From assembly GCA_051294905.1 (NCBI GenBank), contig CM119372.1, forward strand, positions 12,092,001-12,156,000: DNA of 64,000 nt, written 5' to 3'. The notes beneath the pieces were generated by a model. The model did not search any database and was not told the DNA's origin. It worked only from the letters and a program-made list of their open reading frames with translations. Below are positions 9,601-42,400 of this stretch, piece after piece. Origin of the DNA: Botryllus schlosseri. Taxonomy: Eukaryota. Both the position numbers and the translations under genes were made by a program. Numbering within the stretch: the stretch's first letter is position 1; every line of letters begins with the position of its first letter.

Positions 9601-12600
9601 CTCCGAAATACCCGCCGGAGCTTCACTTCTGTGCTAATTTGCGGCATATCACTCGCAATTTGCTCTAAATCTGACCTAAATTTTCAAAAAAGAGGACAAA
9701 ATCTCAAAAAAGAGGACAAAAGGGCGTCCTCCGAGGACACTTTCAAAAAAGTCAATAAAGAGAACTAAAGAGAACAAATCCCCTTAAAAGAGGACGTATG
9801 GTAAGCCTACCATATGACAACTATTATAACTCTACTATCTCTTCTAGTGTTGCGCAAGCTTAGTAACCGTTGTTACGCCAAACATAAGTTCTACCTTTTT
9901 CGTATCACTAGTAGTTTACAACCCGTTTCAAATTGGCTCATTAAGCTTCACAATCACATTCATTGTTACTCATTTTCGGGTATAAAAACCCACGTTTTCT
10001 CTGTTGCGGCCCTTGAGATCTGAGATTCACCTCAGCGCCTGACGTACCATTCTCTGCAATACATCCGACCGAGTGAACTCGTGTGAGTTAAGGAATCAAC
10101 GCCTAAGACAGCAAGCTACCAACAAGTCGTTCAGCTACCTACTGCTCCAGCACGACACAGCCTTGCTGTTACATGATGCCATTGAGTTCGGTAACACAGC
10201 TCACTGTTACACTGCATACAATTGGGATTAGAAGCCAAAATTCAATATTGGTGTTTGATTATATGGTGATGATACGTCAGTGTTGGGATCTAATCATTAC
10301 CTTCGAGTCACAAGTCATCTCGAGTCATTGCAAATTCTGACTCGAGTCAAGTCAAGTCAATCGATTTTTGAAGGTGACTCGAGTCAAGTCAAGTCACTCG
10401 ATTGTTGGAGGTGACTCGAGTCAAGTCAAGTCACGAGTCAAGTCGCAATTCAAGTCAAGTTTTCTTTTCGAAGTACGAGATATGATCTTGTCATTGCATT
10501 CGCCGTTTATTTTAAATCGAGGACCACATATATGGGCAAAGGCGTTGTATAGTTTACGCATGCATAGGATTGCTAAGTAACTGTATACAATTGTCTACAA
10601 TTATCCACTAAAATAGAGAATAGAATACGAAACTTCAGGTAGTTGAAACGATCTGATATGATTGCATTACTCGATTACATATATCAATGGGATACGATTT
10701 AAGCCTGCGCCAAAGGTTGACTAGTAATATAAGTATATTCGAATTCAAGAGGTTTGGTCAAGGTAAGCACTGGGCAGCAATGACCACTGACCAGTCTATA
10801 AGAACAGAGATGGATACTTTCCCAATATATTGCTTTCCTACTAGATAACGACAACATAAGCAGTAAGCTCCAATCACTTCGCTGCGGTCTTGTGAAATAA
10901 TAATGAAGGTTCAGTAAAATGCAAAATCATTGAATGAATGAAATCGGTCGTTCTCACAGGTCACTCCAGCGTGTCGAGAGCAATCCCAACATATGAAAGA
11001 TACAGCGATTTTTATAAACACCGATTACTTGATGACTTGAAATTGACTCGTAAATTTTGCTTCGAGTCACGAGTCAATCCACATTTTTGAAACGCTGAGT
11101 CAAGTCAAGTCATTTTTGCAAAGTGAATCGAGTCATCCCAACACTGGGATATGGAGATAATATATATGTATATTTTAAACAAACCAAACATTGATTTGAT
11201 GATAACGTATGTAGTATACGTAATATTATATGTACACCATAGTATTTTGGGGAACGTTTTGGTGTGCAGGAAGGGTAAGAAACAATGACTAATAGCGTGA
11301 CAATGTGGCGTTGAAGTCATGAAACAAGCTGCGAGGAAGAGGGTATCCACTTCAATCTTGTATTTATTTGATCAGTGGTATATCATTCGTTAAGTCAAAA
11401 TCGTTTTGTTGGTTCGACTTACATCTCTGATTGAGAACGACGATGTCCGAGAAAAGTTTGATAAACTGAAGTCTATATGAATACGACCATTGTCCGGCAT
11501 ACGTTATTCACGGTATTTTTTTATTCTCAGGTCCTCTACAATAAAAAAGAGTATGCGCAAAAGGAAGGTAGGTCTACAAACATCGACCGGTTTTGTATTT
11601 TGTTTGATTTTGTGCATATGCGCAGCAATACCAGATTAACATTCTTCACATTCTTCCGGCAAATCGTGAATTTCATGGTCCCATCCCTCTAGCGAACTGC
11701 AACCATATTCAACCATTTAAAATGATGGTGAAAGAGGTTGTATATATTATGTCATTTGATGGTAGGGGCCCACAGTCCACTGCCTTCATCATCACTCCAA
11801 TTTTGCGACCCCGCCTGTGGCTGAAAATTAGACAAAGCGGACGGCGACGGCTTTGATTTACAGAGCTTACGTTTTCAGGATTATGTCCTCCTCTGGGGTC
11901 CATGAACTCCTTTGGGGCCCGTGAGAAGTCATTTGGGGGTCCGTGATTACCTTATGATTTTTTGGGAAAAATGAAAAGCTATATTTTTACTTTCATTTCT
12001 CTCTTTAAATACACATGTGTCAAGCTAAAGTGCGCGAGTATAAACTGTACCAGAATGTATTAAGATAAATTGATGCGGCGGCCTATACTGCGTATTTGTA
12101 TGTTGGCCTACATTGACCTTACACTACAATACTAAATATATCACAACGTATGTCGATTTCAGTCAATGCAGTCTATTACAATTGGCATTTCGTCCCCCTT
12201 TACAGATTTTACAGCTAGGTAATGGGCAGAGTCAAGTGGAAATGTGCATAAATGACGTGAAATAGGTAATACGGACGTTCGAGCGTTCAACTAACGTTTA
12301 ACTAACTTTTATGATTTGGTAAAAGTGCCCCGATTTCCCGATTCCAAAATATGGTAACCCTAAACAACAGTCCTTTATTTGAGTCCTAAATGTGCTAGGC
12401 GCAACAACAGCTAAAATCCTCTGGCCCGCCTCTCCTTCTGTGTAGATGTTTCGTTATTTTAGTATTATGTCAATTGCTTATTCAATTCTATGCCAATGGT
12501 GATTACAACTTTTGTTCTTTAGCTCGGTTGAACAACAATTTGACACAGTACAGTATAGTTGAGAATCATAATTATTACAATATGGTCAATAGCATGTTGA

Positions 12601-15437: not shown

Positions 15438-16285
15438 CAGAGTTGGTCAAAGTAGTCAAGAAAGATACTAGTGTAGAAGTAGAAGTAGCGAAGAAAAAAT
15501 CTACTCAAGTACGAGTAGAAGTAGAATTGGCTGACTTCAAATCTACTCAAGTAAGTAAGTAGTTGTGAAAATGATCGTAATTCGTTCGCATGGATTGTCA
15601 AAAGCTGCAAATTGAGCTATGCGAAAGGTGCAGAGCTTGATTCATATTGATGCATACCAGGAGTTATCCAATTTTCGACAGCATAAGCATTCGTCCACAT
15701 CATGGGATGAAAACGATAGTATTGATATCGAAATGCGACGCTAATCCTCTGTTTACTCGAAAAGCCCATTTTAGAAAATATCATGGTATGACGTCCTCCC
15801 CCATACTATAAGGCTCGTAATTTAGAGCAATACCGAAAAGTTATATCGGATACGGTATGAACACTTTGCGCCAATAAAACGTTAATAAAAAATATGGTGG
15901 TTCGTAAAAATGCCATATTGCGTAGCTTTATTTCCGGAAAATAAAGACGTTACTACAATTGCTTTTATACTTCAACATGTATGTTCTCCAGACAAAAGAA
16001 CTGAAACTAATTAGAACACAAAGTATGATACTGCGAATTAAAAGAGAAATTTGAATATTACTTCTAAAAAGCGGAAAATATATTTCTCTGGAGATCTTTC
16101 TGATAGCAGGATTAAACTACTTCTACTCGACAAAATGAAAAGAGCGAAAAGTGAGTAAATAGATCACAAAATATTACGAAGTAGAAGTAGCAGAAATCAG
16201 ATTTACTTGAGTAAGTACCGCAAGTAGCGGAAAACTACTTGAGTACTTCGAAAAAGTAGAAGTACTTCGTTACTGACCGCCTCTG
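15438..16285. mobile_element. hAT MITE ('AGTAG/CTACT' family), inverted, internally deleted copy
   Basis: Reverse complement of the 6500-7742 ends; CAGAGTTGGTCA...TGACCGCCTCTG. Confidence 0.85.
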
Positions 16286-16882
16286 CGCCGAAGCCGCTGT
16301 CTTGGACACAGGCGAATAGCTTATTCCGAAACAAAACAACAGCACCCCTGGTATAGTGCAAAACGAGCCAAGCTTGGTGTACAGACGTTAAACATTCTCA
16401 TGCTTATGGAAATGCACTGTGATTTGATATAAACTGAACTTGGTTTTTGCTGTAATTCTTCCTAATTCATAATTTCATTCAATTTCCAAGTTTTCGCGAA
16501 TTCAGTAATTCTAATTCTAATCTAATTTGGAAAAAGCTTTTCATTATATCGGAATCTTGTGATGTATTAATTTGATCAAAAATGTTAATAAAATGATGTC
16601 CGACGATCATTACGATTAGTACTTTTCGTACGTCCCTTTTCTACTCCCACTTGAAGTAGATTTGATGACAATACTTCGAAATGGATACCACTTGTACCTA
16701 CTTTTGAAAAAATTTACGTCGCTACTGGTAATTCTACTTGAGCAGTATCAGTTTATTAATATTTTCATCATTTCAAAACACCGGAGCGGATCACTAGATA
16801 GGAATTTCAATTATTTGCTCATCTGTGATTATGTTAGAGAGAGAGAAAGAGAGTCAAAGAGTCAGCCCACTATAGTTGCTAT

Positions 16883-18171
16883 CAGAGGTGGTCAGTAACG
16901 AAGTACTTCTACTTTTTCGAAGTACTCAAGTAGTTTTCCTCTACTTCTGGTACTTACTCAAGTAGATCTGAATTTCACTACTTCTACTTCTACTTCGTAA
17001 AATTTTGTGATCTACTTACTTACTTTTCGCTATTTTCAGTTTGTCAAGTAGAAGTAGTTTAATCCTCCAATCAGGAAGATAGCCTGAGAAATTTCGGGGC
17101 TGTTTACACGGAGAATCGACATTTAATTTTCATAAAAGTTGAGTTAAGCCCAGAATTTTCGTCGCGCCTCGCGCGCGCTGAATGCGGAGTGTCCAGTATG
17201 ATTTCACGAAAGTATCGGCGAACGTAATTTAGGTAGCGGGTTGGCGTGGTTCCGTTCATACCGCATTGTCGCCCTTCGCCATATGAAATATTTCATCACA
17301 GTATATATGGCTTATCATAACGTTTGTAAATGATGTTTCGCAATCTAGCATTTACTTATCATATCGTAATCTAGCTGTCCATGGCGAGTCCTAATCTGAA
17401 AAAGTGGACTCTGACTTCTTTTCTAGTTTTAGAGCTGTTTTAGCATATCAACCTTCGAAACTTCCCGGACTAAAGACTTTATATACATGTTCAATTTTTA
17501 GATTAATATTTCACTTTCAATACCCAATACCATATATTTTGTTTTCTAATTAACATCAGTTCTTTTGTCTCGATAACCTGCATGTTGAAGTATAAAAGCA
17601 AGTGTAGTAAAGCCTTCAATTTCCAGAAATAAAGCTACAGAATATAGCATTTTTACGGTCCACCATATTTTTATTAACGTTTACTAATCTCACAAAGTGT
17701 TTACACCGTATCCAACACAACATCTCCGTATTGCTCTTCGACTAAAGTACAGGCCTTGTAATATGGGAGAGTGCGCAATACCATGATATTTTCTAAAAAC
17801 GTACTCTTTGAGTAAACAGAGGATTAGTATCGCATTTCCATATCAATACTATCATTTTCATCCCATGATGTGGACGAAAGCTTATGCTATCGAAAATTGG
17901 ATACCTGCTGGTATGCATCAATATGAATCAAGCTCGTCACCTTTCGCATAGCTCAATTTGCACCTTTTTGCAATCCACGTGAACGAATTAGGATCGTTTT
18001 CACAACTACTTACTTACTTGAGTACTTTTAAAGTCAGCCAATTCTACTTCTACTTCAAGTAGTTTTAGGTTGCTCATGAAAGAAGTACTTCTACTCGTAC
18101 TTGAGTAGATTTTTTCGTCGCTACTTCTACTTCTACTTGAGTAGCTTTCTTGACTACTTTGACCACCTCTG
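16883..18171. mobile_element. hAT MITE ('AGTAG/CTACT' family), copy 3
   Basis: TIR CAGAGGTGGTCA...TGACCACCTCTG; perfect TSD GTTGCTAT. Degenerate relatives near 36878-37125, 43440-43665, 47833-48000, 48457-48875 and 56410-56825. Confidence 0.9.
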
Positions 18172-21912: not shown

Positions 21913-22569
21913 ATGTTAGGACTAGCTAACATGAGGGAAGTAATCTTTTGATACCCGCATTGGCATATTTAATACCCGGGTTGGAATCCCGGTACGTTTA
22001 GCGTAATATATTTAGTGTGCCAAGACGATCCCTATCGTCATACTTGTGTTCTGTGAGTAGTATCTGCAGTGTGCACGAGACACCAATTCCATATTGGTTT
22101 ATTACATTGCTTGCTTGGTGCCAGCAACCTAACCCAAGGAAGTAAGCTGTATTAAAGTCTAAAACAGTGATTTGGGCACATGAATTTCAGAAACTTGATC
22201 AACTATATTGTGGTATTCAGTTCGAATTGTTTCGTTCGGTTGTTTCATTTGAGTTAGAAAGTAGGCTACCAAATATGCCTTCTTGACAGGACATACTTGC
22301 TGCGCTTGCACATCATGTTATATTATATTACACACAGTGTAATCAAAAACTTGTAGTTAACAATTAACATTCATTGTTTTAAGGCCTGTATGGACCAACT
22401 TCAGGCTACTTTCCATAATCTATACGTCACTCGCTCCACACTGTAGGTGTCCAACAACATAGAAAAGAACGACTCTCGCCTGGTCCTTGATAACCAGTCA
22501 TTGAATATGTGTCCTGTGTACCAATATGGACGTTTGAAGAGCTTCTTGGAGGTACAGAACTTCAATATA

Positions 22570-22790
22570 CAATTAAATAGTATATTCATATTGAAATCAA
22601 CCCGAATATTTTCGGCTGACACTCGTCAGGGGTAATCGTCAGCAACTAGTAGAGAATTGGAAAGAACATTGTATATCAACAATCGTATCACAAAATATGA
22701 CGTCACCAGCATGAAATTTCGAATGAGAGAGCGTTCAATGTACTATTTTTAGGTGATACACGAACTTCTTTTGTTGACAGACGTTGTGGA
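22570..22790. repeat. Dispersed repeat, second copy at ~45558-45770
   Basis: Near-identical ~200 bp including CCCGAATATTTTCGGCTGACACTCGTCAG. Confidence 0.75.
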
Positions 22791-23854
22791 TCATGTAAGC
22801 CAACTTATTTAATGTTGTCTAAAATTAGGTCATAAAAATTGAATCAGTATATTAATATGTATAATCAGTATTGTTTGCGCCTTGCACTAGAGTAGGGGTT
22901 AAACCCGCTCAGAGGCCAAACGCCAGACGCCAAACGCCGAGCGGCGGCCGAATGTCTATACGGCGTTTGGCGTCTAGTTTTCTGAGACGCCAAGTAGCTA
23001 TACGGCGTTTGGCGTCTGATATGGTGAGACGCCGAGTAGCTATACGGCGTTTGGCGTCTGCTATGTTCAGACGCCGAGTAGCTATACGGCGTTCGGCGTC
23101 GGGTATGTTGAGACGCCGAGTAGCTATACGGCGTTTGGCGTCTAGGTAAACTGAGCAGAGGCTAAATCCTTTCATGGCGCGACTATCAAGTTCCCGCAAC
23201 TATATGATACCGAAGATCCATATTGTCACATTTTTTTCATAATAAGCGTTGGCAGAATCCCAAATGATGGTATGTTCAGATTCAAAAAAGACCTACTTGA
23301 TCACCTCCTGTCGTTATACTACTAACTCGACTCACAATTTTTTTGCTGACCTGAGTTATTTTCATAAAAATGGATTTACTCATTCTATGGCTTATCCAAG
23401 AATGGTATATCACGACTAATAAATGAAAAATAGGCCCTAAACCTGCCTTTTATCTGTTACAATAAACATGTTCAGAGTGGGAAAAATGAACATATGAAAT
23501 ATCCGAGGCCTTCGATATCACCCCCGAGAGTTCCATAGAAGTGACCTAAAGCTGAACTGGATGGGGGAACATTAAACACCATGACTTGGACTCAACCCAT
23601 TGCTCTCGGACTTGACTCGGCGTGAATTGAAAATGTCTCAAGTCAAATTGACTTGGTTACAACCCTGTCACCACCCCATATCAGTGTTGGGATGACTCGA
23701 GTCATGACTTGACTCAAGTCACTTTGCTAAAATGACTTGACTCGAGTGAGTCAAAATGTGCAATGACTCGTGACTCGAAGGTAGTGACTTGAACACAACA
23801 CTATAATTGTACACTCACAATGAATTTCAGACCCAAGTCTGTAGATACAGTATG

Positions 23855-24040
23855 TAATGAAACCACAATAAGAAATATGCAACGAATACCACAGTAAAAG
23901 TCATTAAGAAACAAGCAACGAAACCACAGAAAAAGTCACAAAGAAATAAGCAGTGGAACCACAGTAAACGTCATCGAGAAATCAGCAGTGGAACCACAGT
24001 AAAAATCACTATGAAACAAGCAACGAAACCACAGTAAAAT
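23855..24040. repeat. Minisatellite (~35-bp unit, about 5 copies)
   Basis: Repeated AAGAAAxAAGCAACGAAACCACAGTAAAAAGTCA-like units inside the 22890-26259 element. Confidence 0.75.
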
Positions 24041-24069
24041 GTCCCCAATAAATATATAAACATCAGAAT

Positions 24070-25425
24070 TTACTTCTGGGTACATAGCATGCAATAAAAA
24101 TCAGGATCAGGTATCTGCTGTCCCGGGCAACAGTGCTCGTGTGTCCATCGACCACAGCTATCACACGCAACCTGGAAACAAGTTAGAATCAATATACCTG
24201 ACAAATGTAATCTCGTAATTGCATAGGAAAGATGCGGTACCGATGGATCAAAAATCGCAAAATGATCTCTGGCCCTCAAATCTTCAGCCGAGGATATATC
24301 TTTGCTGGCTCAACACTTTGATCCAAGCTCTACGTATCTCGGAAATTTACAAGAATATCCGCTTTTTCAAAAAATATTTATGAACGTTCAAAATTTGTTG
24401 CTCGAACGCATCATTGGTCCCCACCCGGTAGGTCCAAAGGCACACGAGTGACACGACCATGGGACCTAAGAGATATACGTTCAAAAACTCAGATTTTTCA
24501 TATTGTTTTGTTGTGTAATATAATCTAAGCTACAGCAAGTCAATGAAGAATGTTTCGTCGCCACCTTCAAGAATAAAATAGATTATTTGATTATATCAAC
24601 TCAAATGTTGGAGTAAAATCACGTTTCGATTTACGCCCAAAATAACAAAATTATGGCACATTCATATTACCCGTAAATCGACATTTTGACTTCCAATTAC
24701 CTCGTTATAGCGATAAAACACCACAGGAAACTATGATTTGCAGCCTCTATATGTTTAGGCGTGTTTCTGTTGTTAAGTGATTAGTTGATTCAAACATTTT
24801 GCTTGATTTGGTTATGGTACCATAGGCCCCCCACCCTATAAATATTGGAATTTAATTCAAAATAGGCAACTCGAGGATGGTATTGAGTTAAAAAAGATGT
24901 GGCATTATATACCCTGATACAAGCCCTACACTTCACATTAAAAATAATGGCTGGTTTGTTAGTGTGAAAGATTCTGCCAGCATGCATTTGTAGACAAATT
25001 CGCGTACTGTAATCATGGGATTATCTCAGATAATATTTCAAGTATTTTCGGTCACACTGTCTCATCGGTACCACATCTCCCCTACCCATTTCATGTCTTT
25101 TTTCATTGGGTCTGGACTACTGCATTCAATGCAATAATCTCCCAATTCTTTTTCATCTGCATGCAAAACATACTACGTATTTTAAATGGTTTTAATCCAA
25201 CATTGACTAACATACCCGTCGCATCAAGCAAGATTTGACCAAACTGCTGGCGGTAGCTTTCGCAAGCTCGTCGAAAATGATCAAAATCCAGGTTTGCATC
25301 GGGTAGAGTTCGGCGGCCTATTACGTGAAAGTAGATTGCAAATCAATTTTCTCAAATCTCAATACGTGAACGCATCACAAACCTTCAAAGCAAGTACTCC
25401 ACAATTTCACCCATCTTTTGGAACA
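24070..25425 (-). pseudogene. Decayed spliced Ulp1/C48-protease + PHD-finger coding remnant; exons ~25425-25383, 25317-25216, 25156-25086, 24171-24070
   Basis: Spliced minus-strand reading PKDG*NCGVLALK | AAELY(frameshift)..DANLDFDHFRRACESYRQQFGQILLDAT | DEKELGDYCIECSSPDPMKKDMKW | VACDSCGRWTHEHCCPGQQIPDPDFYCMLCTQK*. Complete C4HC3 PHD pattern; Ulp1-type DGxNCG motif interrupted by TGA. Confidence 0.78.
24226..25082. mobile_element. TA-flanked MITE inside the PHD intron
   Basis: Imperfect TIR GGAAAGATGCGGTACCGATG / CATCGGTACCACATCTCCCC with TA on both sides (24224-25, 25083-84). Confidence 0.7.
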
Positions 25426-27479
25426 TCAATCCTGGTCTTCAACCTTGAACTTCTCACAACCGAAGATCATTTGTAGTATACTTGTGTTGTGTAGAACTTT
25501 GCGGAGTAATATCGAAACGAAATATTAGGTGTGTCTTGAATACGATCTCAGTGACGCGAACTGTTGATTTACCCCAGCATACGTGAAGTGGAGATACAAA
25601 GGATTTTGCAGCTGTGTCAGTGTAGTCTAGAATCAATCACTAACAAACTATACTAGAAAACAATAAAATATCTTGTTACTACACGTCACATACTGTAATC
25701 TTCTTGCGGTGGTTAAGTTCCCAGCAACAAATCATGCAGTATCTGTAGTAACGTGACTGACGACCTGTCTAATACGAAACGTGTATGTTCTCAAGCAGCC
25801 AGATATTCAGTGTCGACCTAGCACCGAAGCACACGCGATGTCGTCACCTAGTAGCGTGTACTGTACAGTGTACAGTCAGTGTACGCACGAAACAACCATC
25901 AAATCTCTTGCCCACTGGCCAATGATTTGACATGCTTTGCTTAGATTTAGCTGCAGAAAACTCCTGTTCAAGCCTCAACCTTCAAATCAAACCCTATTCT
26001 CAACATACCAGATGGCGAACGCCGTATAGGTATAGCTACTCGGCGTCTGAACAGACACCAAACGCCGTATAGCTACTCGGCGTCTGAACAGACACCAAAC
26101 GCCGTATAGCTATTCGGCGTCTGAACATAACAGACGCCAAACGCCGTATAGCTACTCGGCGTCTCAGAAAACCAGACGCCAAACGCCGTATATACATTCG
26201 GCCGCCGCGCGGCGTCTGGCGTCTGGCGTTTGGCCTCTGAGCGGGTTTAACCCCTGTTGTTGCACTAATGTCAGAGCAGTTATAGTTTATGCAATCTCAT
26301 TCAGAAAGTATCTACAATTTCTATAGAACTTGACTGAGCTTGGAAGGTTGGAAAATAGTCAACTATTCCACAGTACAAAATAGATTTTATAAAATAGACC
26401 CAGCGGTTTCTGATCAATGAGGGAATCTATAATTATGCTTGATTGCACTATAATATGCAAGTATATAAACTCCGTCTCAAAAAACACCAATATCAATTTA
26501 TCAATCAATTCCTTTGCTCTAGTTCACCTTATATTTATATGTTTTCAATAATTTGCCTCAAATATGAATTTGAATAAGTATTTATGTTCCTTCAGTACAA
26601 TGATCGGGTTTGATATACATCAATGACAATGTGAATAATTGTAATGCTTGCAATCATTTCAAATTTTGTCTTGCATGAATATAATCCACTTCGTAGGGTA
26701 TAAATGACCTTCTTGTATTCAAATTATACACATAGTACACCTTGTCGGTGTGATCTATATCAAGGAAGTATACCCAAGCTCAATGTATCAACTTGACAGG
26801 CTGTGTCAGTGAATATCTTGATATAAGACGTGCTCTGCAATAAAATGCATTCAAGATCAAGACGCTTGCTGATTGATTTTCGGAAATCATTAATGAAGGG
26901 ATGTCACAATGATCCACCATATCAGAAAGCAAGCAGGTGGCTTCACATACCAGTGGTGTTGTACACCAGACCTGTTTCAAATTGAAGCCTGGGACCAGCT
27001 TATTAAGCCTATGTCTGTGCTAAAATCTTAAGCCCTGTAACTGTCACGGCATCGTTGTGATCACCTACCTATGCAATGTCCTAAAATTAAATATGTTAGT
27101 TAAAACATGTCACATACTTCTTTTGCGCATATATGCGTACTGTGATATTCTGTGCGATGTTACATAGTTTTATATCTATAACATCACTTAGATGGGCTAG
27201 CCTAATAGCATTTGGATGTGATTTATTGTGTGATAAATGCATCATTTCATATCGAGTCACTTTAAAAACTGCCTACTCAATATATCTTTGCTTCCAGTGA
27301 GGATTTAGATGTGGCGGGGCTTACTGCTGATGCTAGCTTCTTGTTTTACGTACTACATTGTACTTTTATACTTTCATAGCGATATCTGGTCGTGTAATTT
27401 TGACTGCCGCCTAGGCAATCACTTTACTTCATTAATGAATTAGTGATAAATATTCTACTTGTTGTGTGCAACAAATAGA

Positions 27480-30400
27480 ATGACAGCAGTGAACCATGAC
27501 CATGCTGCAAGACTGGTGAGTTGATTTTAGTGATAGGAGCTTGAATGCAGGTAACGTTTCAAATGTCAACGTTCTTCAGGTGACCCACCTGTCACAGCAA
27601 AGATCCTCCGGAAAATACTGCGACGTGTGTGTCTGTGTCGCTGAACAGAGGTTTCTAGCTCACAAATGCGTATTATCAGCTAACAGCGACCAACTGGATT
27701 CCCTTATTCTGGTGAGTTTACAAGCTATTTGAACTGATCACTGCCATGTTTTTTCTGGTGTAGATCTGAAAGTTACTCGTATTTTAGCTTCTATCATATA
27801 TATATATCAGGAATTGAAACGTTTTGTATATTATTAACTGAATCTGGAAATTGGGGACTTTCCACACTGAAGAAAGGCACTGATGAGTAGAAACGGCTAT
27901 TATATGGATCATTGATCCGCTGTAGCAATCCCTATGCCAGAAAATAGTTTAGAAAATGATTATAGAGTGTTGTTGTACGATGGGTAGCCTATATGTCCGA
28001 TCATCAGCCTCTTTTTTGCGGGGTTTTGGATGCTGCATATCTATGCACTCATCTTAGGGGCTCATCTAACAGAGGTAAAATATATTTTATAGGATGCTAC
28101 TGATGAAGACAATGCCAGCCATGATATAGAAATAGAAATCCATGGAGTGAGCCCCGTTGGATTCGAGGTAGGTGCTATTTCCTACAGGGTTGGTTCGATT
28201 ATGTTCACAATAAGAACAATTTCGTTCACAATAAGAACAATCTCATGTTCACAATAAGAACAGTCTCATGTTCACAATAAGAACAGTCGTTAAATTCGCA
28301 ATAACATCATTCGCAGCACCAACACATCCCCCGGACACGATGACCGAGTGGCAACATAGTTCGAACACAACCCAGACATGATGTCCGAACACCCCCAGAC
28401 GCAATGTCCGAGTGTCAACGCAGTCCGAACACACTCCTGACATGATGTCCGAACACCCCCAGACACGATGTCCGAACGCCCCCCCCCCCCTTCAGACACA
28501 CCCCAGACATGATGTCCGAACACTCCCCCCCCCCCTAGACATTATGTCCGAGTGACAACGCATGCTGTCCGAACACACCCAAGACATGATGTCCGAACAT
28601 CCTCCATACACGATGTCCGAACTCGCCACGCCCCAGACATGATGTCCGAGTGTCAACGCAGTCCGGAGACCCCCCAAACATGATCTTATGAACACACCCC
28701 AGGCTTGATATTTGAACACAGGCCGGGGCATGATATCCGAACACGATTTCCGATTGACAACGCAGTGCGACACCTGGCTCATGATATCCGAACACCCCCA
28801 GACATAATGTCCGAGTGTCAATGCAGTCCGAAGATACGTGTAGATAATACGTTACTCAATGAGAGCAACGCTAATACTTGTGATGTCATAAATGGAGCAG
28901 TGGAGTTTGAAAATCCAACGTTTCTGCGATCAATGACCTGATTGTTAATATCACACTATAGTGTACGAACTGCATTGACACATCGGACATCATGTCTTGG
29001 GTGTTTTCGCACTGTGTTGCTACTCGGACGTCGTGTTTGGCATATGTTGGTGCTGCGACTGACATTGTTATGAATATAACGGCTGTTCTTATTGTGAACA
29101 TGAGACTGTTCTTATTTTAACCATGACAGACCATATTGTGAATTGGCACAGTCCGATCCTACCTCAGACATCGTGTCTGGGGTGTCTTCGGACTGCATTG
29201 ACACTCGAACATCATGCCCGGGGGTGTTCGGATATCATGACTAAGGTGTCTCCGCACTGCGTTGCCAATCTGAAATCATGTTCGAACATCATGCCCCGGC
29301 CTGAGTTCAAACATCAAGTCTGGGGTGTGTTCATAAAATCATATTTGGGGTGTCTCCGGACTGCCTTGACACTAGGAGGACATCATGTCTGGGGCGTGGC
29401 GAGTTCGAACATCGTGTCTAGAGGGTGTTCGGACATCATGTCTTGGGTGTGTTCAGACTGCGTTGGCACTCAGACATCATGTCTAGGGTGTGTTCGGACT
29501 GTGTTTTCAATCGGAAATCGTGTTCCGTCATCATGTCAGGAGTGTGTTCGGACTGCGTTGACATTCGGACATCATGTCTGGGGGGTGTTTAGATATCATA
29601 TCTGGGGTGTGTTCGGACTGCGTTGACACTCGGACATCGTGTCTGGGGGTGTTCGGACATCATGTCAGGAGTGTGTCCGGACTGCGTTGACACTCGGACA
29701 TCATGTCTTGGGGGGGGGTGTTCGGACATCATGTCTGGGGTGTGTTCGAACTGCGTTAACACTCGGACATCGTGTCTGGGGGTGTTCGGACATCATGTCT
29801 GGGTTGTGTTCGGGCTATGATGCCGCTCGGACATCGTGTCCGGGGATATGTTGGTGCTGCGACTGATGTTATTGTGAATATAATGACTGTTCTTATTGTG
29901 AACATGAGACTTTTCTTATTGTGAACATGACTGTTCTTATTGTGAACATGAGACTGTTCTTATTGTGAACGAAATTGTTCTTATAGTGAACATGAGATTG
30001 TTCTTATTGTGAACATGAGATTGTTCTTATTGTGAACATGAGACTGTTCTTATTGTGAACGAAATTGTTCTTATTGTGAACATGAGATTGTTCTTATTGT
30101 GAACATGAGACTGTTCTTATTGTGAACGAAATTGTTCTTATTGTGAACATGAGATTGTTCTTATTGTGAACATGAAACTGTTCTTATTGTGAACAAAATT
30201 GTTCTTATTGTGAACATAATCGAACCAACCCTCCTCGCTATTTCGGCTATTTGTTCTGAGCTCTACATGTTTTTCTATCAGGATTAATACTTTTTTTCTC
30301 GCTTGGAGTTGTTTGCTTGTTTACCTGCTTTGAACCAGACGGTCAACTTCGGCTGCACTTATTTATTAATTTTTTTATTCGGATTTGGAGCATTTGGCTC

Positions 30401-33400
30401 TGCCACTATAATATATTTTGAATGCGATGAAAGGATTAGATTATTTTTTGTCTGCACCATCATGGTACCTAGGCGATGGAGATGCAATGGAGCCATTGGG
30501 TTATTGAGTGTTTTGAGCGCCTAGCGTGGGGCCTAGTTGATTCTAGCCATGACCTACTGATTGAGAAGTCGATGCTTTAGCCTACTATTGCACAATCTCT
30601 TTCGTGCTGTACAAATTTCGTGGGATCATGGATCCAAATTACCAACAAACTGACTGTGCAGATCTATATACGAATTTGACAATACTGTGAGATGTTGAAT
30701 TCTCGTATTTCAGATTGTTTTGGAATATTTTTATACGGGAGTGTTAAGATTAGAACCGTCGACCGTTACACACACTTGGATGACTGCCGTTTACTTGGGA
30801 CTACCAGATATTATCAACCGTTGCAATAGTTATTGTCAGCAATCGGTCTGTGTCACTGCGCATGCCAAATTGCCGACAGCGCCAAGCAATACGCTCACTA
30901 CAGCAAATCAACAGGTAGGCCTATATTGTCTGCACTCTTTCAGACTGTAGATTTCATAATAGCACAACAGTTCCTAGTTATAGGTATGCGACAAGTGATG
31001 TATTAGAAGCACATAATAGTGTGGGTAAGGGTGGACTATGCGCACCAGCTGATTTTTGTGGCATCGGTATTATGATAAAGATGAGGCCTTCACTACTCGA
31101 GTTGTGACTGTGTAGCAAGCTGAACTGGGCAGACATCCTGTAGCTATATCAGCCCGAACTACTATTCGTCATATAGTATTATTTGAATGCCTGTTATTTA
31201 ATAAAACATACCATGTAGAGCAGGGCCGGCCAACCCATGGCCCGCGGGCCACATGTGGCCCGCGAGAAGGTTTTGAGTGGCCCGCGAGGTAATTTCCGAA
31301 ATTGGTAATGTTATCAAAATTGAATTGCACAGATTGAACTTGCAAGGCCAACCAAAAATTTGATTAGTCTCTCAGCAACACTTGAGATGTGATGACTAAA
31401 ATATCAGTTACGACGCATTGGCATTTCCATGAGCCGGTCACACTTTGGTAGATCTTCGTACATTTCAATAAAGCAGAATAATTTGCGATAAATTTATCAA
31501 AAGTAAATATTTTCTACACGCTTCGCGCAACATGCTGTCACTCGATTTCTTGCTTTTAATATTGTTACCCCTATGTGAAAATGAAAGAACACCTATAATA
31601 CATCAGATTGAGTCTAACTATATTCTCAATTACGAGACAAAGTGTCGTTCAACATATGCGACCTGGCGTTTGCGCTCGCAGAAAGATCGTCGACTATGAA
31701 ACCTGGGCACAAAATGATTGATGCATGTTGGTCGAAGCTTTCGAAATTGATATGTCCAGGCGCTGAATAGTCCAGTCCTGGCAGACTGAGTCAAGTGATA
31801 TACCGCAGGCCCGCAATATAGTCAAGTGACAATAATATTGAGCTACGAGCTTCCAAAAATTTTCGCGCTTCGCGCGGCTAGTGGCCCGCGCAATATTTCG
31901 TCGATCGCATGTGGCCCTTTGGCTGAAAAGGTTGGCCAGCCCTGATGTAGAGGGTAGTGGGGAGCGGATACCATGGAAAGTAACTGCACCCTCTAATGAA
32001 GGGATGGTGCGAACCCCTGTAAAGTTCTGGTTCGTGTGAACACGAACCTTTGCGGAAGCTACCGTGTGAACGTGAACCTATGACGTTATGTTACTAATGA
32101 CAACCCTACATTTCCGTAAAGTTATATGTTAATGTACATTAGGGCTGTTCAAAAAAAAAATTTTTCCTGAATCTTGCTGGTTACGTGATTAAATCGTTAG
32201 GTTGCCTTAAAAAACGACGCACACCAAATTTTAATTCATTCCAACCAATAATCGCTGATTTCGTACAGTTTGAAAATTTTGAATTTACCCAAAAATGCAA
32301 AAAAAAATTTTTGTCAGATTTATCTGTTAACCCCATGAAATCGTTGCGCTGTCTTCAAAGACGATGCAAAACAAATTTGACTCAATTCCAACCAGTAGAA
32401 GTGGAGCTATTTGAGTTTTTATTCGATAATTCGGAGATTATTCTAGATCTGTGGATAATCCAAGAATTATCATCGAAAAACTCAAATAACTCCGGTTCTA
32501 CTGGTTGGAATTGAGTCAAATTTGTTTTGCATCGTCTTTAAAGACAGCGCAACAATTTCGTGGGGTTTACAGAAAAATTTGACAAAAAAATTTTTTTGCA
32601 TCTTTGAGCAAATTCAAAATTTTCAAACTGTACGAAATCAGCGATTATTGGTTGAAATGAATTAAAATTTGGTGTGCGTCGTTTTTTAAGGCAACCTAAC
32701 GATTTAATCACGTAACCATCAAGATTCGGGAAAATAAGCTATTTTTGAACAGCCCTAATGTACATTATGACTAGCCACGACTCTAGGCCATATTGTGCCA
32801 CAATGCTAAAGTACATGCTGACTTTTTAAACGTCACCTAATGTATCAACTGCTAAAATATTTCCACAAAATCGTTTGCCAATAATTTTTTCAAGGACTCG
32901 GCTAGACCGTACAGATGTATTCTTACTAGTGTAAGACCGGTTTCTATGCTTCCACCAAATATTATCTTAAAAACAAGTTTACAGTAGCCTACACCCCAAT
33001 CGGACAGATTTGGTTTTGATGACACCATAAAGGCTGCTGCACACTGGCTTTGCGACACGACTAAAACAGGTAATTCCCCGATCATGTCGCGCTCACGATC
33101 GCGGTAGTTGCGTTCTTCTGCACACTGGGACACCGAGTCGTAACGTCGGCCTATCTGTTCTGTACCAACTTAATGATTTCGTAACAGTATAGGTTCTTGG
33201 TTATTACTATTGAAGGACACATCAAGATACCTCCTACACAACACATGTGTTTTCAATGTGTACTGACAGCATATTGCTGATGCTCCGAATTTTGATAAGG
33301 AATATACACCATAATGTCACTAATATATTCTCAAATTCGTTTAGTATTTCAACTCAAACTCAAGACGCAGATGCACAATATACAGTACCCAAGATACAAA

Positions 33401-36400
33401 GAATATTAAGTAGAAGGAGTCTAATCGTTGAAACGCCCTGACATAGTCCATCAATCAGATATTTTTATAATATATAGGCCTACTCTTCTTGGCCTACCGG
33501 TACTTTAGTAATGTCAAGCATGTCAGTGGCATTGGCGGGCTAGCGGTCATGTTCTCTGTTATTCATCTTGTATTGTGAACATAGAGTAATCTAATTATCA
33601 AATATATCTTCATCTTTAAGTTATCAAGTTGAGGTTGAATCATTCTTTTTCTGGACTTGTTGGATATCATACAGCGCACTGCGTCAATCCCGCACAGCCT
33701 TCACTGTGTAACCCTAGATAAATTACGCATCTGGTACACGAGAATGTTAGATTAGGAAGTTTAACGATTAGAAAAGATTGCAACAGCACCGCCGAACTAA
33801 GAGCAAGTGCTTTTTTTCTACTGCGACTGAGCCCGCAACTCGCGACAAAGTTCAAAATTTTCAACTTTGTCGGCGAGTTGCGCAGCCCACTCGCTGACGC
33901 TTTGTTGCGTAGTCTGGCGACGCGGTGTGCATGGTTTTGTCACAGACAGCCGCGATTCCCTCGTTTTGTTTTGAGCCAGTGTGCAGCAGGTTTAAGGATC
34001 TCAAATCAAGATAGATCCCGTACGCCCGATAGATTTTTTTACATTAAACATTGATGCATTCTTTATATCAACTTCGTTGATGTAAATAACTGATTGATTG
34101 ACTAAACACAATTCACTGACTCCCTACATGTAGCGTGTTTCATTCTTGCTATTGTGTGATTGCGGGCAAAGCTCACAGCAGAAAGTCACCAAAGATTCAC
34201 AAGCAGAAAACTGAATATTTCGAGCGAATAGTTTTGGAAATTGGCAATGTGCATACTCATGCTCATTTAGTGCTGAATTTCATGCCGCCAGAGCCATGCG
34301 GAAAGTGGTTCGAAGTTGAAATGCAAAGAATTTCAACCAAAGATGTTATCATGTCGTGAAAAATTGAATTACATGAAAATATTCACAGTGCCGAACCTAC
34401 CATGGCTCGTTTGTGAACACGAACCTCCAAATTCCAAAGGCTCACACACAGAATGCGAATGTGAACCTCATGTTCACACCATCCCTACTGCTATGGCCCG
34501 CCTCATCCGCAGCACTACCGTACCTGATTGATTTGTTTGTGATGACAGTTAATCGAACTTCTATTTGCTTCTGTTATCCGATACAGCACACTGCTTTGGT
34601 TCCCGGCAATAATACTAAAGCACAACCACAATCAAACGGGGATCTTGTACAAGCGCAACTCACCACCAATACCGTATTGTCCACTGCGACAAATCAGGTA
34701 AGGGTTCTGTACGACTAGTTTTTATCCGAATAATCTTTCATATACAACTTGTTGACTTACAATAATGAATGCATGCTGTGATACTCATGCTCCTCATTTT
34801 CCAGCCGAAAGTCAATAGCATGGTGAAGTTTAAAGAAGAAGCCACCAGGCAAAGCATGGTTGATGCCGCCGCCAAAGGTGAAGTTATTGAGACAATAGCT
34901 CGTTCCATGGTTTGAGACTGTCTGAATTTTTATACTGCACTATTATACTAATTTCAGTCGAACTTATTCAACTTGTAAAATACAAGGAGGCAAAAAACTT
35001 CTTGGGTCAACTGGACGGAATAGCATGCTCCATCATTACTTAATGCAGTGGTTCCCAACCTTTTCCATCTCGTGCCTCCCTTGGCCGAAATTTTAGCCAA
35101 AATTCCCCCCTTAGGATAAATCTGCCCGATGAATAAAAATGCTCATTTTTTCCGCGTAAACACCTGTTGACTGTGAGAATAAGACGGGCGGTATCGAGTG
35201 TTTGTTTCTAGCAGTGCTGTAATAACACTTTGTAGAACTCCAAAAACCATGGTCTTGGTCCCAATCACACAAATTCTGGAAGGCTTGACTCAACAGACCC
35301 CCACACTTCCATTTGTGTTTTCGGCTTACCGTGCACCAATCGCTAATATAACTACTGTGAAAAATCAGTATCCATAAATTTACTGGTCTCGCGATTTTTT
35401 TCTCAAGTTTGCGTATGCATTTGGCCAACAATAGTGGTACTTTCATATATAGAAGGGTTGACCAGACTCGAGTTTGACTCGAGTCACCATTTTCTGATAC
35501 CTAGACTTGATCGAGTCATTTTCTCAAAATACGGAAACGACTTGAGACAATCTGGGTATTGACTCGACTTGGACTCGAGTCATTGTGCATGACTCGAACC
35601 AAGTCATATGACTCAAAACTATAACACGGCCAAGACCGACATTTCATTGTAATTTCGAAGAACAGTAAAGTGACAACCCTGTTGGAATTTTGTCTATTTA
35701 TCCTGGTACTTGACAATGTGAAGAGAAACTGCTCAAAGTGAGGAAAATTATTATGTCATAAATCCAAATCATTCAATATCACCAAACAGTGTTGACTTGA
35801 GTGGGACTTGGACTCGTTCTCGAGTCATAATACCATGACTCGGACTCGACCGTCTGCTCGGTGACTTGGACTCGGACTTGACTCAATGGTGAATTGAAAA
35901 TGACTCGACTTGACTCGAGTCAAAACTATGAAAGTGAGATTGACTTGTGACTCGGAGCCTCATGACTGGGTTACAGCCCTGATATATAACATACACGTGA
36001 TCAGATTCCCTGCTGGAGCGCATTGAAATTTTGGACACCCATTACGTTTCGGCAACATTGCACCAAGTTTACCACGTCTTTTTTCGATCGGGTAGCTGTT
36101 CACTAAAAATAAAGCAATGCTAGCGATCTCTTTGACTTGAATTGATAACGTTGGAATATTTAGTCACTGTCTGAAAATGTTGACTTGAAAATATAAGATA
36201 AATACTTTCACTAGAGGCCTTGTTGTGATAGATTCGGCACGACATTTACTCGCTTAGGATATATTTGATTGAGAAGCCGTCGCTGGCCTACAAAATTGTC
36301 TTGCGAACTGCAGCACATCTGAACTAGTTAGAAAGAAAAAAAAAGGGTTGGGGGGGATTTGTATATGAAAAAGAGATTTTAGATAGCATTTGAACATACT

Positions 36401-39400
36401 TTCAGCAGACAAAAAACAGCCATAAGGAGCATACGTTCGGATATAGCTGGTTGTCTACATGACATCTCGAACATGAACAATTTGGGAAATCCGTTACAAT
36501 TCTAAAGTGGAATTCCTCCCTAAAAATTGCAAAATTCCCCCCAAGGGGGGAATTCCTCCCCGGTTGGGAACCACTGACTTAATGCCTCTAGGATGGGGCT
36601 AAACGTTATTCATTTGCGTTTTGATGCCGAATTCTTGGACATTGCTTGTCGTGTTACTGGTAGTGCTACAAAAATTGAGGTTTCTTCTATCATCAGTTGA
36701 TCTCGTCATGGCCCGCAAGACTAAGATTCCAAGGGAGGAGACGTTTTTCCGAATACAAAATGCGTAATGCAGCATCGTAGCAGGGAATAGTAGTTCATAA
36801 ATACCATCGGCGACGTATTGAGCACTTGCAACTTGGCAGTAATTGCCAGTAAAATTCCTCAGATTTGTGTCATTTACAGAGGTGGTGAAAGTAGACGCTA
36901 TTGGTACTCGAGTTGAAGTAAAAGTAACAATGTAAATTTTTACTCGGGCAGAGGTAGTGATTACGAGAATACGAGTAAGTAAAAAGTAAGTCAGTATCCT
37001 CTGAAAACTTGAGTGGAACTAGTAGTCTAAAGTCATGACCGCTTGAGGTAATGGTGCAAGCAGACGAAAAATTATTGGAGTAGGCCTACTTCAAAAATGT
37101 AGAAGCACTTCTTCGCTGACCATGTCTGTTCACATTTACAGACATCAAAAACCAGCCCGTTGAAATAAGGGAGAAGCAAGGCGAATCGGAGACGCCGGAA
37201 AGCAAAAAAGCAAAGTACGCGACGATGGACGAGGTACAGCCTATTGGTGCAATTGCCGGTTTCTACCCGTGACAGAAAGTTTCACGTTGCAGAATGCCAT
37301 TGCGTGGAACCCGCACTCGCAGCAGAACGCCGGTGCCGCACAACCAGCCGTAGCGGTTCCCAGCAGCGCGGTGTCGCAGGTCGTCGTCAATTTCGTGCAG
37401 GGTTACGGGGGATCTTATCAGTGAGTGCAGTACATTCTTACAGTTACCGGTGAATTCGGCACTTGGCTGCCCCTAACCTGAATACATTACTAAAGCAGTT
37501 CTTAACTGGGGTTCACACAAACCACAGCGGTTTGCTGGTGGTCAAGGCACACAGCCAACTCATACAGCAGAAGTGACACAAATTTTCAATAAATATTCAA
37601 AATCATTTGTTTGTTTTGTCTGGAAATCATGTTTTAATGGTTTTGTTCATTTTACATCGAGGGTTGGGAGCCTTTTTTGACCGAAGAGCCATATTGACCC
37701 GATACGTCGAATTCTAACTCCCAAAGAGCCATAAATGTCAATCAACTGTTACAAAAGTGGTACATCAAAATTGAAAATTCGTGACGTATTTGTAGCACTA
37801 ATATATGGGATTCGTAGTGTGCGCAATATTTTTGTGCCCACATGCGTAGGTGGAACCGAACATGTTCACTACAGCAGTACATACTTAACTTACCGCAGGT
37901 TGTGATACGTCAGTGACGTGATGTTAGGGGAGGCACGTGAGGCAGTGCCTCGCATGTCAGGGATGAGTGAGGAAAAACTGTGAAACCTTCAATGATTATA
38001 ATTGGTATTTTTTTTATCGGTGTTTATGAATAATTAGATTTTAGACATGTCTATCCCCAAAATCAATTTTCATATTTGTTCGAAAATAAAGCGCGAAAGG
38101 AGAGGCACGGACGGGCCAAGCCTCACTCATGATAGCGGAACTTATTGTAAATAAGTTGATATTATTGATATTGATATTTATACTGATATTATTCAAATGA
38201 AATTGTCGCGCTGATTTCGAAAATCTAAACATTGATCGACTTCTAAAGTATTCGGCGTCACATAAATTCACCAACAGGTTGCTGAAGTATTGATAAATTA
38301 TGTACAAAATTTAAAATTTGTCAAAGCGCCATATCTTCTACCCGAAAGGGCCATATATGCCTCGCGAGCCGCAGGTTCCCGACCACTGTTTTACATTGTC
38401 GTTGATGCTTACTGCACAGCTCATTTTGAACACCGACATTCTATAGTGGGCTACCGATAATGTTTTAAACGGTTAATGCGATAGGTTTTTGTGACTGGAC
38501 GAAAATCTGGGGTTCGCAGATTAGCGTTATGGCTCGGCAGGTGAGTAAAGGTTGAAAACCGTCTCATTCGCCGATGTTCCGAATTCACAAAGTGCCATAT
38601 ATTACAATTAACGCTCATATTCAGTGAAACATTCATTATAGATTATTAACGCAATATGCATCATCGCTTTTATAATAACAATAGATTACATTTCTAATGC
38701 CAAATTCACCGAATGCCGAATAGCTGACATCGTCCTGTGTGTTGTTTTGCAGAGCCGTTGATTGGCCCGGTAACGCAAACCAGCCGTGGACGCAGCTTCA
38801 AGTGGGGAAAGGCCAGATCGTCGCCACCGGCATGATACCGATCGCGTCGCAAGTGAAATCTGAAAGCGTTCAGAATTCGCCCGTGCAAATCCTCGCGGCA
38901 GGTGATACAATTCGTTTGTATCAAAATTTTCGCCGTTGTGAAACGCCGAAAGATTACAGTACGATAAAATGATAGTAACGAGTCGAAACGACTTCAAGAC
39001 GATATCTATCCGTCGCAAACTTTCACCATGGCCTTAAATGGAGTGAAAAAGTAAATGATTGTGATAAAATAGGCCTGCACGCTAGGGCTCTTCAAAAATG
39101 ACTTTTTTCCCAAATCGTACTGGCTACTTGATAAAATTGTTAGGCTACCTAATTTAAGCCTACACACAAAATTTGGTTCAATTCCAGCCAGTAACCGCTT
39201 TGCTACAGGAGAAGAAAGTTTCTATTTATTATATAAAAATAAATAATAAAAAATTTGAAAATTTTCTGTTCACCCCATGAAAGTGTTAGGCTGTCTATAG
39301 AAACGATGCTCACCAAATTTGGTTCAATTCCAACCAGTGGAAGCGGAGTTATTGCCGTCGAAAAATTTGGATTTGAATAAAATAGTATTTACGGTGACCG

Positions 39401-42400
39401 ATTCTTTGTTTATTTATTATAGTTGTGCTCACCGTAAATACTATTTTATTCAAATCAAAATTTTTCGACAGCAATAACTCCGCTTCCACTGGTTGGAATT
39501 GAACCAAATTTGGTGAACATCGTTTCTATAGACAGCCTAAATTTTTTCAAATTTTTTATTATTTATTTTTATATAATAAATAGAAACTTTCTTCTCCTGT
39601 AGCAAAGCGGTTACTGGCTGGAATAGAACCAAATTTTGTGTGTAGGCTTAAGTTAGGCAACCTAACAATTTTATCAAGTAGCCAGTACGATTTGAGAAAA
39701 AAAGTCATTTTTGAAGAGCCCTACTGTACGCGTTTGCAATTCAGAATGCCCACTATTAACCACTAAAGCCATGTGACCCCTTGACCAAATCTAGTGATGC
39801 TACTTACTCCAGCACTTTCTGTTTACTACCTGTACTCAAAGTAGTTGTGACTGGTCTTGAAAATCACTACTGTACTCGCAATCGAGTAGAAGTTTACGAC
39901 TGACTTTTGGCAACTTTGACCACCTCTACTTGAAGGCGGTAGTAATCGAGGATGGCTCGATATCCAGCACACGCTTCCTCTGCCTTGCTCTCCACCACAC
40001 TCGCACTGTAACGAGCATGACACTCTTGTTGTTCAGATCAACAAATCAGTAACGCTGCTTCGGAGGGAGCGGCCGGTGCCGGTTCAAGCTCACCCGTGTC
40101 GTACACTACCCTGTCTTTGGTATCGCAGGATGGGCAGCCCGTTGAGGCTAGGACTGACGGTGATTCCGTGTCGGCCGACGCGGTTAGTTTACTTTTGTTT
40201 CCTGTTACTTTATAACGGGTTTACGACTAGGGCTGTGCAAAATGGACTACGTGAGGGGTTTGATCCAGAATCGCGTGTTGCGGTTCGAGCTGCGTGTCAC
40301 TCATGGTAACATTATAATAGTATGGATGGTCTGGAAATTTAAAAAAGTGTATCTAATATGCGGCCGCATGGGAAATAATGCAGATTTCACACCACATAAA
40401 GTTAATTTAGTATTTTTTCAACAATGTTGCATTGTGCTTGGTGACAATGCCGCAGGTTGTAACGCGTGTGACATACGACTGGGTGAGGTTTCTAGGCTTC
40501 CTCGTTTGGAAAAAAAGCATCAGACGTGTTACACTCGTTGATAGCTCTACTGGGAAAGGGCGTGTAATTATAGTAGGCTGCTCTGAAAATTCTCTCCAAA
40601 AACTCTCTCTTGACTCAAAATCATTATACAATTAGTAGGCCTACTCGAATCGTTGCACCAGGTCACAAGGTTCCGAGTCACAAGTCGATGTTGCTTTTAT
40701 AGTTTTGACTCGAGTCGAGTTAGAATCCAAGTCATTACGGTCACTGTTCGGTTTTCAGGACAATCCGCTTCAACCCACTTTTTTTCAATTCTGGTCGAGT
40801 GATATAGAATGGCTCGCATTCATAATGTGGTATTTTACTCAGTCGACAGTTTTTGGCCCTATTTTTTATCAAGCCTGACAGACGAAATACCAATAATGTG
40901 GTAACATAATTATTTTTTTAAGTTAAACAATGTAATGTCTGTCTTGACCGTCCTAGTCTCGAGTACAAGCTGCATCAATACTGAAATTGATCGAGTCAAT
41001 TTACGCATTTGAAAAAATGACTCAAGTCGAGTCACCAAAAAATCGTTAGTCGAGTCGTTGCAACCCTGTGTTGTATCCAGGCTGATTTGCGGCGTTCTGA
41101 CGCCTCTGCGCTTTTCCCAGGCCACGCCGGTCTTAGCCACGCCGGCGGCTGCTGAAGGGACGACAAACATGCAGATCTCGATACCGGCCGTCGGAACGCC
41201 GAACCCGCGAACGCAAGCGACAGTGCGGGCACAGGAGTTGAACTTGGACAACATTCATTTCACACAGATCAATAACGACAACGGCGAGCCCAGGTTGGTT
41301 TACGCGTTTCTGAAGGTCTGACTTTTGGGGTAGAGTTCCGGGCAGAGGCGGTCAATGTGGAATTACTTCTAGGTTTGCACGCTTGCTCTGCTTCCTCAAG
41401 GGGTTATGATTTTAGGTTGCTACTAGTTGTAATTCACAGTTTTCATTTTTTTAGGCAACATTTTTTTGAAAATCGCTACTGATACTTGTATATAAGTAAA
41501 TATTTATGGAATTATCAGTACTTGAGTACCAACAAAGCACTGGCTACTTCGATCACCCCTGATATCCGGTGCTACTGTCAATTTTCAGCGTCTCTCGTCG
41601 CGGTAATGTCTGATGCTGGTCTTGAAAATTTTAGTGTTTCTTAACTACCAAGGAATGCCACGTTGTTTCTGTAGTGCGTCACGATTCTTTTTTAGATTTG
41701 AATTTTGTCTCTTACTAGTACTTGTATACTCGACAATATTCTGTTTCGTGAGTTGCTAAGAGTCATCATCAGGAGCAGACTTGGACAACCGAAAATTTTT
41801 TAGATTTTTTAACTTTGATTGGAGTTTGAATTATAGCTATAAGTATTTTACAAATCAGACTAGGATTAGAATTATAGCTTCACTGTTTTTCCAAATTACG
41901 TTGTAACCAGAATTACCGAATTCGTGAAAACTTGATATTGAAACAAGCTCAGTTCATATGATGTCTGTGTTCGTTCTCGTTAGAGATTAGCAAATGTCCG
42001 TACAGCGTTTCGCACCGTGCTGTTCTGTATCATTTGCAGGAAACCATAAATAGATTAGAATTGAAATTAGAGTGTGGAAACATTCCACAAATTAGATTGT
42101 CAGCATTCTGCTCTAATTAGTCTAAATAGACCATTAGAATTATCCAGTTTTGCGATCGTTTTAATCTTTACACGCTCCTAGGTTTGCAGCGGCGCAGTCC
42201 GTCGCCACGACGTCCAATTTCGTCCATCCTATCATGATCAACAACATCCAAATAGCTAACGCCGACGGCACGAAAGGCGACACCATGCTCATGCAAGTAC
42301 GACACGGTGCCGGCGTGAATTCTAATCCCCTGTTTGCTACGTTTGTTGTGTTTTGTCGTGTCAGAATCAGGTGGAGCAGCTGCGCATTCAACACCAGCAA

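Follow-up and report, generated by a model that had tools for sequence, protein, structure and literature searches.

The stretch of Botryllus schlosseri DNA analysed here, hereafter the window, comprises 64,000 nucleotides (assembly GCA_051294905.1, contig CM119372.1, positions 12,092,001 to 12,156,000 of the forward strand). It is eukaryotic and rich in repeats, with a G+C content of about 40%, and it contains two foldback elements, designated A and B. Element A covers window positions 22890-26259 (3370 bp) and element B 28182-30236 (2055 bp). Each is flanked by an exact 8-bp target site duplication (TSD), followed inwards by a 4-nucleotide tip and then by the inverted repeat. The boundaries, read from the sequence, are as follows.

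22882..22889, no strand: left TSD of A, TTGCACTA
22890..22893, plus strand: G-type tip of A, GAGT, at the downstream end of a gene remnant; identical to the tip of the Pristionchus family OG0000357
26256..26259, minus strand: C-type tip of A, CAAC, at the upstream end of the gene remnant
26260..26267, no strand: right TSD of A, TTGCACTA
28174..28181, no strand: left TSD of B, GCTATTTC
28182..28185, plus strand: C-type tip of B, CTAC; a second copy in another flank also starts at 28182
30233..30236, minus strand: G-type tip of B, GAGG; identical to the tip of the Pristionchus family OG0001158
30237..30244, no strand: right TSD of B, GCTATTTC

On the forward strand A reads TTGCACTA-GAGT-AGGGGTT...AACCCCT-GTTG-TTGCACTA and B reads GCTATTTC-CTAC-AGGGTT...AACCCT-CCTC-GCTATTTC. 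The perfect inverted repeat begins at position 5 in both elements and is 39 bp long in A and 37 bp in B, and the outer tetranucleotides pair at 1/4 positions in A and 0/4 in B. The tips are GAGT/CAAC in A and GAGG/CTAC in B, that is, one G-type (GAGK) and one C-type (CWAC) tip per element, and they agree between A and B at 3/4 positions on each side (p ~0.006 for both tips agreeing at at least 3/4). Outside the tips the two elements share no similarity; the arms are unrelated, since a blastn comparison of A and B gave nothing better than E 0.25. The sequence-only reading, in which the two elements were first described, had given coordinates, TSDs and tips that were all exact on re-reading, and its description of an inverted repeat lying 4 nucleotides inside the TSD boundary, of outer tetranucleotides that are non-complementary yet alike between the elements, and of otherwise unrelated arms was borne out.

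An 8-bp direct repeat was found only at offset 4/4 in both A and B when 169 offset pairs (0-12 by 0-12) were compared. The chance of an exact 8-mer repeat, estimated from about 200,000 random position pairs, is 0.34% for any offset pair, 0.04% for equal offsets and 0.002% at 4/4. Insertion took place as a unit in both A and B, with a staggered target duplication of 8 bp. A scan of the whole window for an 8-bp TSD, a mismatched 4-nucleotide tip and an inverted repeat gave nine candidates, three of them with an exact TSD, namely A, B and one pairing between two palindromic MITEs (miniature transposable elements with inverted repeats). The MITE pairing joins internal segments of the related palindromes 32130-32767 and 39083-39723 and was dropped despite its exact TSD; the remaining six candidates, with inexact TSDs, were also dropped. 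Two other CAACAGGG sites, at 4819 and 35684, lack a partner end with a repeated TSD and were set aside as hAT-like. The end patterns of A and B gave 0 loci in metagenome contigs, and B gave 0 loci in viral contigs.

Part of the stretch is present in 14 of the 17 listed sequencing runs, four of which were used for comparison, all as contigs; contig depth is not copy number, and joints and loose ends were assessed among those listed. In run X1 the contig depth over the interior of A is 1717-1947 against 54-86 for the flanking contigs (roughly 20-35-fold), and the interior is also found in runs that carry the labels of two other organisms, as contigs of 596 and 657 nucleotides with 16 and 22 other letters. 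The centre of B is only about 3-fold in depth and the arms of B reach thousands. A and B are both members of multi-copy families. A further end of B was found on an X1 contig of depth 185 that joins a host repeat to B, the B part beginning at 28182, which is the C of CTAC. The letters ahead of this end finish in AAAATATG, after which an uninterrupted copy of the host repeat in the window continues with ACGT. Because the extra end begins at CTAC where the intact repeat reads ACGT, CTAC came with the element. The earlier claim that the left and right tips are unlike and are part of the element thus holds, its second half being supported by this one further end of B.

The host of that insertion is a copy, located elsewhere, of the extremely high-copy short repeat found directly to the left of A at 22533-22790 (and at 45555-45770). 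Hundreds of contigs with differing flanks begin at 22533-22537, and the comparison was swamped by this repeat. B is found at its window site in a second sample as well (X9, records 28 and 31), and no clean empty site for A or B was seen among the joints listed from the four runs. In X9 the right flank of A (26281-27284) is preceded by 588 other letters on a contig of depth 72.8 (record 26), and the same depth recurs to the left of A at 22810 and 22826, a coincidence of depth that may reflect an allele that lacks A or carries another insert.

The features inside A are, from left to right:

22894..23129, plus strand: left arm, 236 bp, 90% identical to the right arm, with 42-bp tandem units
23682..23803, no strand: nested fragment of a repeat (GACTCGAGTC) of high copy number; its ends, CAGTGTTG...CAACACTA, are hAT-like and have no matching TSD
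23869..24054, no strand: 35-bp tandem array immediately downstream of the gene remnant
24070..24171, minus strand: last exon of the gene, with an AG acceptor, the latter half of a PHD finger, and the stop codon
24226..25082, no strand: high-copy insertion of 857 bp, flanked by TA, inside the PHD intron
25086..25156, minus strand: exon bounded by AG and GT, which supplies the PHD finger's initial half (CxxC...W)
25216..25317, minus strand: exon bounded by AG and GT, frameshifted in the present copy; by eye like the tail helix of an Ulp1-type protease, without database support
25383..25427, minus strand: decayed exon, 3' part, which has a DG*NCG motif and a GT donor
26030..26255, minus strand: right arm, with 37-bp tandem units

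The minus strand of A thus carries four splice-bounded pieces of a gene directed from the CAAC tip towards the GAGT tip, including PHD-finger exons beyond what the sequence-only reading had described. The last two pieces, when joined, give the C4HC3 pattern of a PHD finger followed by the stop codon. The last exon matches the Pfam families PHD_2 (E 0.007) and PHD (E 0.017), neither of which reaches the curated cut-off, and the PHD finger of PHF23 in PDB (E 0.003), and its top matches in Atlas are PHD (0.89). The DG*NCG motif resembles, by eye, that of the catalytic cysteine of Ulp1, and Zisupton genes are reported to end in a Ulp1 protease (Bohne et al. 2012). The protease-like piece of A has no match in Pfam or PDB. 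Weak Pfam rows for other open reading frames (ORFs) of A (AFT, AvrPtoB_bdg, PIF, Transposase_21 and DUF5557; E 0.05-0.2) were dropped as chance matches. The 857-bp insertion is missing from other copies of A, as seen in a joint from 24223 to 25083 at a depth of about 1170 in X1 and about 1155 in X9.

Element B has a simpler build:

28186..28837, plus strand: left arm, made up of the 37-bp perfect repeat, a 23-mer in 3.8 copies and then 64-bp units
28838..28960, no strand: short, low-copy centre of about 120 bp, with no coding trace in six frames read by eye
28961..30232, minus strand: right arm, longer and partly duplicated, with 64-bp units and the 23-mer in 15.6 copies

B is accordingly nearly all arm around this centre, the arms being 81-83% identical internally and 96% identical across the outer 100 bp. 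An X1 contig of depth 147 joins 28182-28214 via 17 other letters to 30203-30236, and this combination of the left 33 and right 34 nucleotides of B is possibly a minimal MITE of the B family, of about 84 bp.

The structure of a foldback, in which long inverted arms with variable arrays in tandem surround a middle and a TSD flanks the whole, is found in both elements. Among known foldbacks, the sea-urchin TU1 has an 8-bp TSD and Galileo has been assigned to P. Foldbacks are defined as a structural class in PMC4079207, and the Drosophila elements FB and Tetris resemble A and B in their modular long arms, variable number of tandem units, non-coding or variable middle and TSD of 8-10 bp. In contrast to A and B, recessed asymmetric tips are not mentioned for these foldbacks in the available part of that paper.

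From the 8-bp TSDs and the tips known from nematodes, A and B are probably non-autonomous foldback derivatives that are moved in trans by a transposase of the Zisupton/KDZ group. They would then probably be passengers of a known, little-studied family and not a new kind of element; formal membership in Zisupton is no more than probable. A length of 8 bp is characteristic of the TSDs of Zisupton (PMC12730594) and of those of KDZ1 and KDZx1 of Cryptococcus, and a TSD of this length is found in two of the two elements. The sequence-only reading had left it undecided whether the tip signature was already described. Novelty is not supported: near-identical tips are printed for two Zisupton families of the nematode Pristionchus pacificus (PMC9297572, text of Fig. 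S6B): OG0001158 has GAGG/CACC and OG0000357 has GAGT/CATT, with the inverted repeat recessed by 3-5 nucleotides. The GAG(G/T) tip at one end, the C-start at the other and the recessed inverted repeat are thus common to these families and to A and B. The G-tips agree at 3-4/4 positions in all six pairings of A, B, OG0001158 and OG0000357 and the C-tips at 1-3/4, and the chance that both nematode families show GAGK together with a C-start is about 6e-6 at the composition of the window. By hand count the first 11 nucleotides of the G-ends are alike at 8/11 positions, both for A against OG0000357 and for B against OG0001158. A multi-exon gene, indicated in A by the splice-bounded pieces, is likewise a feature of Pristionchus Zisupton (PMC9297572).

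The nematode elements differ from A and B in having long transposase genes and short, imperfect terminal inverted repeats (TIRs), whereas A and B are deleted or gene-less and have long arms of tandem arrays. In Zisupton/KDZ at large the TSD is 8 bp and TIRs are present, short or absent (PMC12730594; bioRxiv 10.1101/2024.08.15.608186; PMC13652916). In the parts of these sources that were available, no description of foldbacks with satellite-like arms was seen for the group. Autonomous Zisupton/KDZ elements carry a KDZ domain (PF18758) with CxC/SWIM modules; no such domain was found in the ORFs and frames of A that were scanned or in the six frames of B read by eye, and neither element is an autonomous member. 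Non-autonomous derivatives of Zisupton in fish have been assigned through their terminal motifs (PMC13652916). According to the same paper, on cichlids, such motifs were already known from Bohne et al. 2012 and Dfam, and the signature may therefore already be catalogued. The Dfam library of hidden Markov models for Zisupton termini is described in PMC7805219 without printed logos. A remark on tip asymmetry was not seen in the available part of PMC9297572, and a literature search found no statement of asymmetric tips, the defining Zisupton paper and the Dfam end logos being outside its reach.

Several observations weigh against a Zisupton/KDZ mobiliser. The authors of the Pristionchus study found no TSD (PMC9297572), and the polarity of the tips is reversed, GAG being marked upstream of the gene in the nematode and lying downstream of it in A. 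Under the Repbase rule for non-autonomous elements at most one mismatch is allowed in positions 1-11, and A and B have three mismatches each against the (distant) nematode ends. The 5' ends of fungal KDZ elements (CAGA, CGGA, GCCT, GGGG, GACC, CACA, CAGG, CACC and GAGC), as far as the source shows them, have no tip in common and do not show those of A and B. A KDZ domain (PF18758) or other transposase domain was found neither in 13 of the 34 ORFs of A nor in three read-through frames of 25085-25653, and a protein homologous to the pieces of A was found in none of three word-index searches made with decayed queries of 33-189 residues. The single match in a HMMER search with a piece of A was an unrelated repeat protein and was set aside as spurious. 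The assignment of a piece of A to Ulp1 is tentative, made from a motif and a likeness judged by eye, and the PHD matches are below the cut-off in Pfam and concern a domain that is also a feature of Rehavkus. Further element ends among the joints listed amount to one for B and none for A.

That A and B are foldbacks of the Mutator-like (MULE) type with one altered tip, moved by a transposase related to Mutator or Rehavkus, is unlikely. Starts of the GA... kind are typical of MuDR. Most foldbacks have been assigned to Mutator (PMC4079207), which also speaks against Zisupton/KDZ as the mobiliser. MULE TSDs are 8-11 bp long, and Rehavkus resembles A in having a PHD finger, a minisatellite near the 3' end and long TIRs (PMC6446971). 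Unlike A and B, however, Rehavkus has a 9-bp TSD and symmetric ends, and the TSDs of MULEs are immediately outside the TIRs (PMC6446971), whereas those of A and B are 8 bp long and lie 4 nucleotides outside the repeat. In the foldback at 53063-54111, which looks like a canonical MULE-type element within the same window, the ends are symmetric (GGCC) and the TSD is 9 bp long. The two-tip pattern of A and B fits the nematode elements annotated as Zisupton, as these are printed in PMC9297572. No trace of a MULE DDE transposase was found in the ORFs of A that were scanned (13/34 and the three read-through frames), as is expected of a non-autonomous element of any group.

It is still less probable that ends of this kind are made by an undescribed transposase lineage, either a new superfamily or a group unrelated to KDZ. 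Such a lineage would agree with the protein searches, which found no relative, with the literature search, which in the sources within its reach found no statement of such a signature, and with a tip polarity relative to the gene that is unlike that of Pristionchus. The protein searches were, however, weak, the queries being decayed fragments, and both the TSD length and the tips match a superfamily that has a name.

The remaining explanation, that A and B are hAT elements with YAGGG ends in which the outer 3-4 nucleotides and the 8-bp repeats are flank or an old footprint, is very improbable and largely refuted, as the sequence-only reading had also held: the flanks at the YAGGG boundary agree at 2/8 positions in both A and B, the right end of B reads GAGGG, the TSDs abut the repeat in all five hAT-type control elements of the window and the CTAC tip is found again in a different flank. 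The resemblance on the other side is that the sequence of A from position 4 onwards, TAGGGG/CAGGGG, looks like the ends of the hAT-type controls, YAGGG being readable at both ends because position 4 of A is T or C, and that the CAACAGGG sites at 4819 and 35684 look like hAT ends with CAA ahead by chance. The five controls (9358-9809, 51613-52062, 31221-31944, 35046-36576 and 57870-59581) have TAGGC, CAGGG or CAGTG ends and abutting 8-bp TSDs.

For A and B as Zisupton/KDZ derivatives, we infer the identity of the mobiliser, its binding to repeats and arrays, a cut 4 nucleotides outside the repeats and a treatment that differs between the ends. A would derive by internal deletion from an autonomous element with several exons and would have retained the last of these, a protease-like piece followed by the PHD finger, and B would be an ends-only foldback consisting of termini and arrays alone. 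The inverted repeats, together with the tandem units behind them, are probably where the transposase binds, and cleavage would take place 4 nucleotides outside the inverted repeats. The transferred 3' ends would then differ, ...CTC-OH at one end and ...GTWG-OH at the other, with C and G as last bases. Such unlike 3' ends would imply either an unequal handling of the ends, by ordered cleavage or strand transfer, or tips that are end-specific contacts kept by the lineage. A biochemical study of a KDZ transposase did not turn up among the papers that the literature search listed. A bolder and, on balance, improbable reading is that the code of a GAGK tip against a C-start tip is a conserved and so far unstated property of animal Zisupton, extending from nematodes to a marine invertebrate and reflecting unequal end handling, and that a share of the animal foldbacks filed under Mutator or as TSD-less hAT elements, possibly including the sea-urchin TU, is driven by KDZ.

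A and B define no new class of elements, and the novelty is modest; the two elements are themselves real and well defined, and useful for annotation. They provide a short classification rule for elements without genes, namely an 8-bp TSD, a GAGK and a C-start tip and a repeat recessed by about 4 nucleotides. Elements of this kind would be missed or mislabelled by structure-based TIR finders, and the recessed repeat may explain the absence of a reported TSD in nematode Zisupton. Two unrelated families with differing left and right tips are also a ready set of substrates for the question of unequal end processing.

The window contains further elements and some gene exons. The third foldback, at 53063-54111, is 1049 bp long and has a 53-bp perfect inverted repeat, the 9-bp TSD GAGGTTAAT and arrays of 33-42-bp units. 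The segments 32130-32767 and 39083-39723 are related and nearly full palindromes of about 640 bp with TAGGGC starts, and have a partial relative at 44866-45208. An element of 2.7 kb with long inverted arms and CAGAG ends is found at 15438-18171, with a partial direct copy at 6500-7742. The segments 5030-5995 and 32000-34484 represent an old duplication with 71-80% identity, the second copy of which is broken by later insertions. Exons of a rhodopsin-family G protein-coupled receptor (7tm_1, E 9e-7) are located on the plus strand at 572-1048, and exons of a UAA-family nucleotide-sugar transporter (E 5e-5) on the same strand at 61350-61889.

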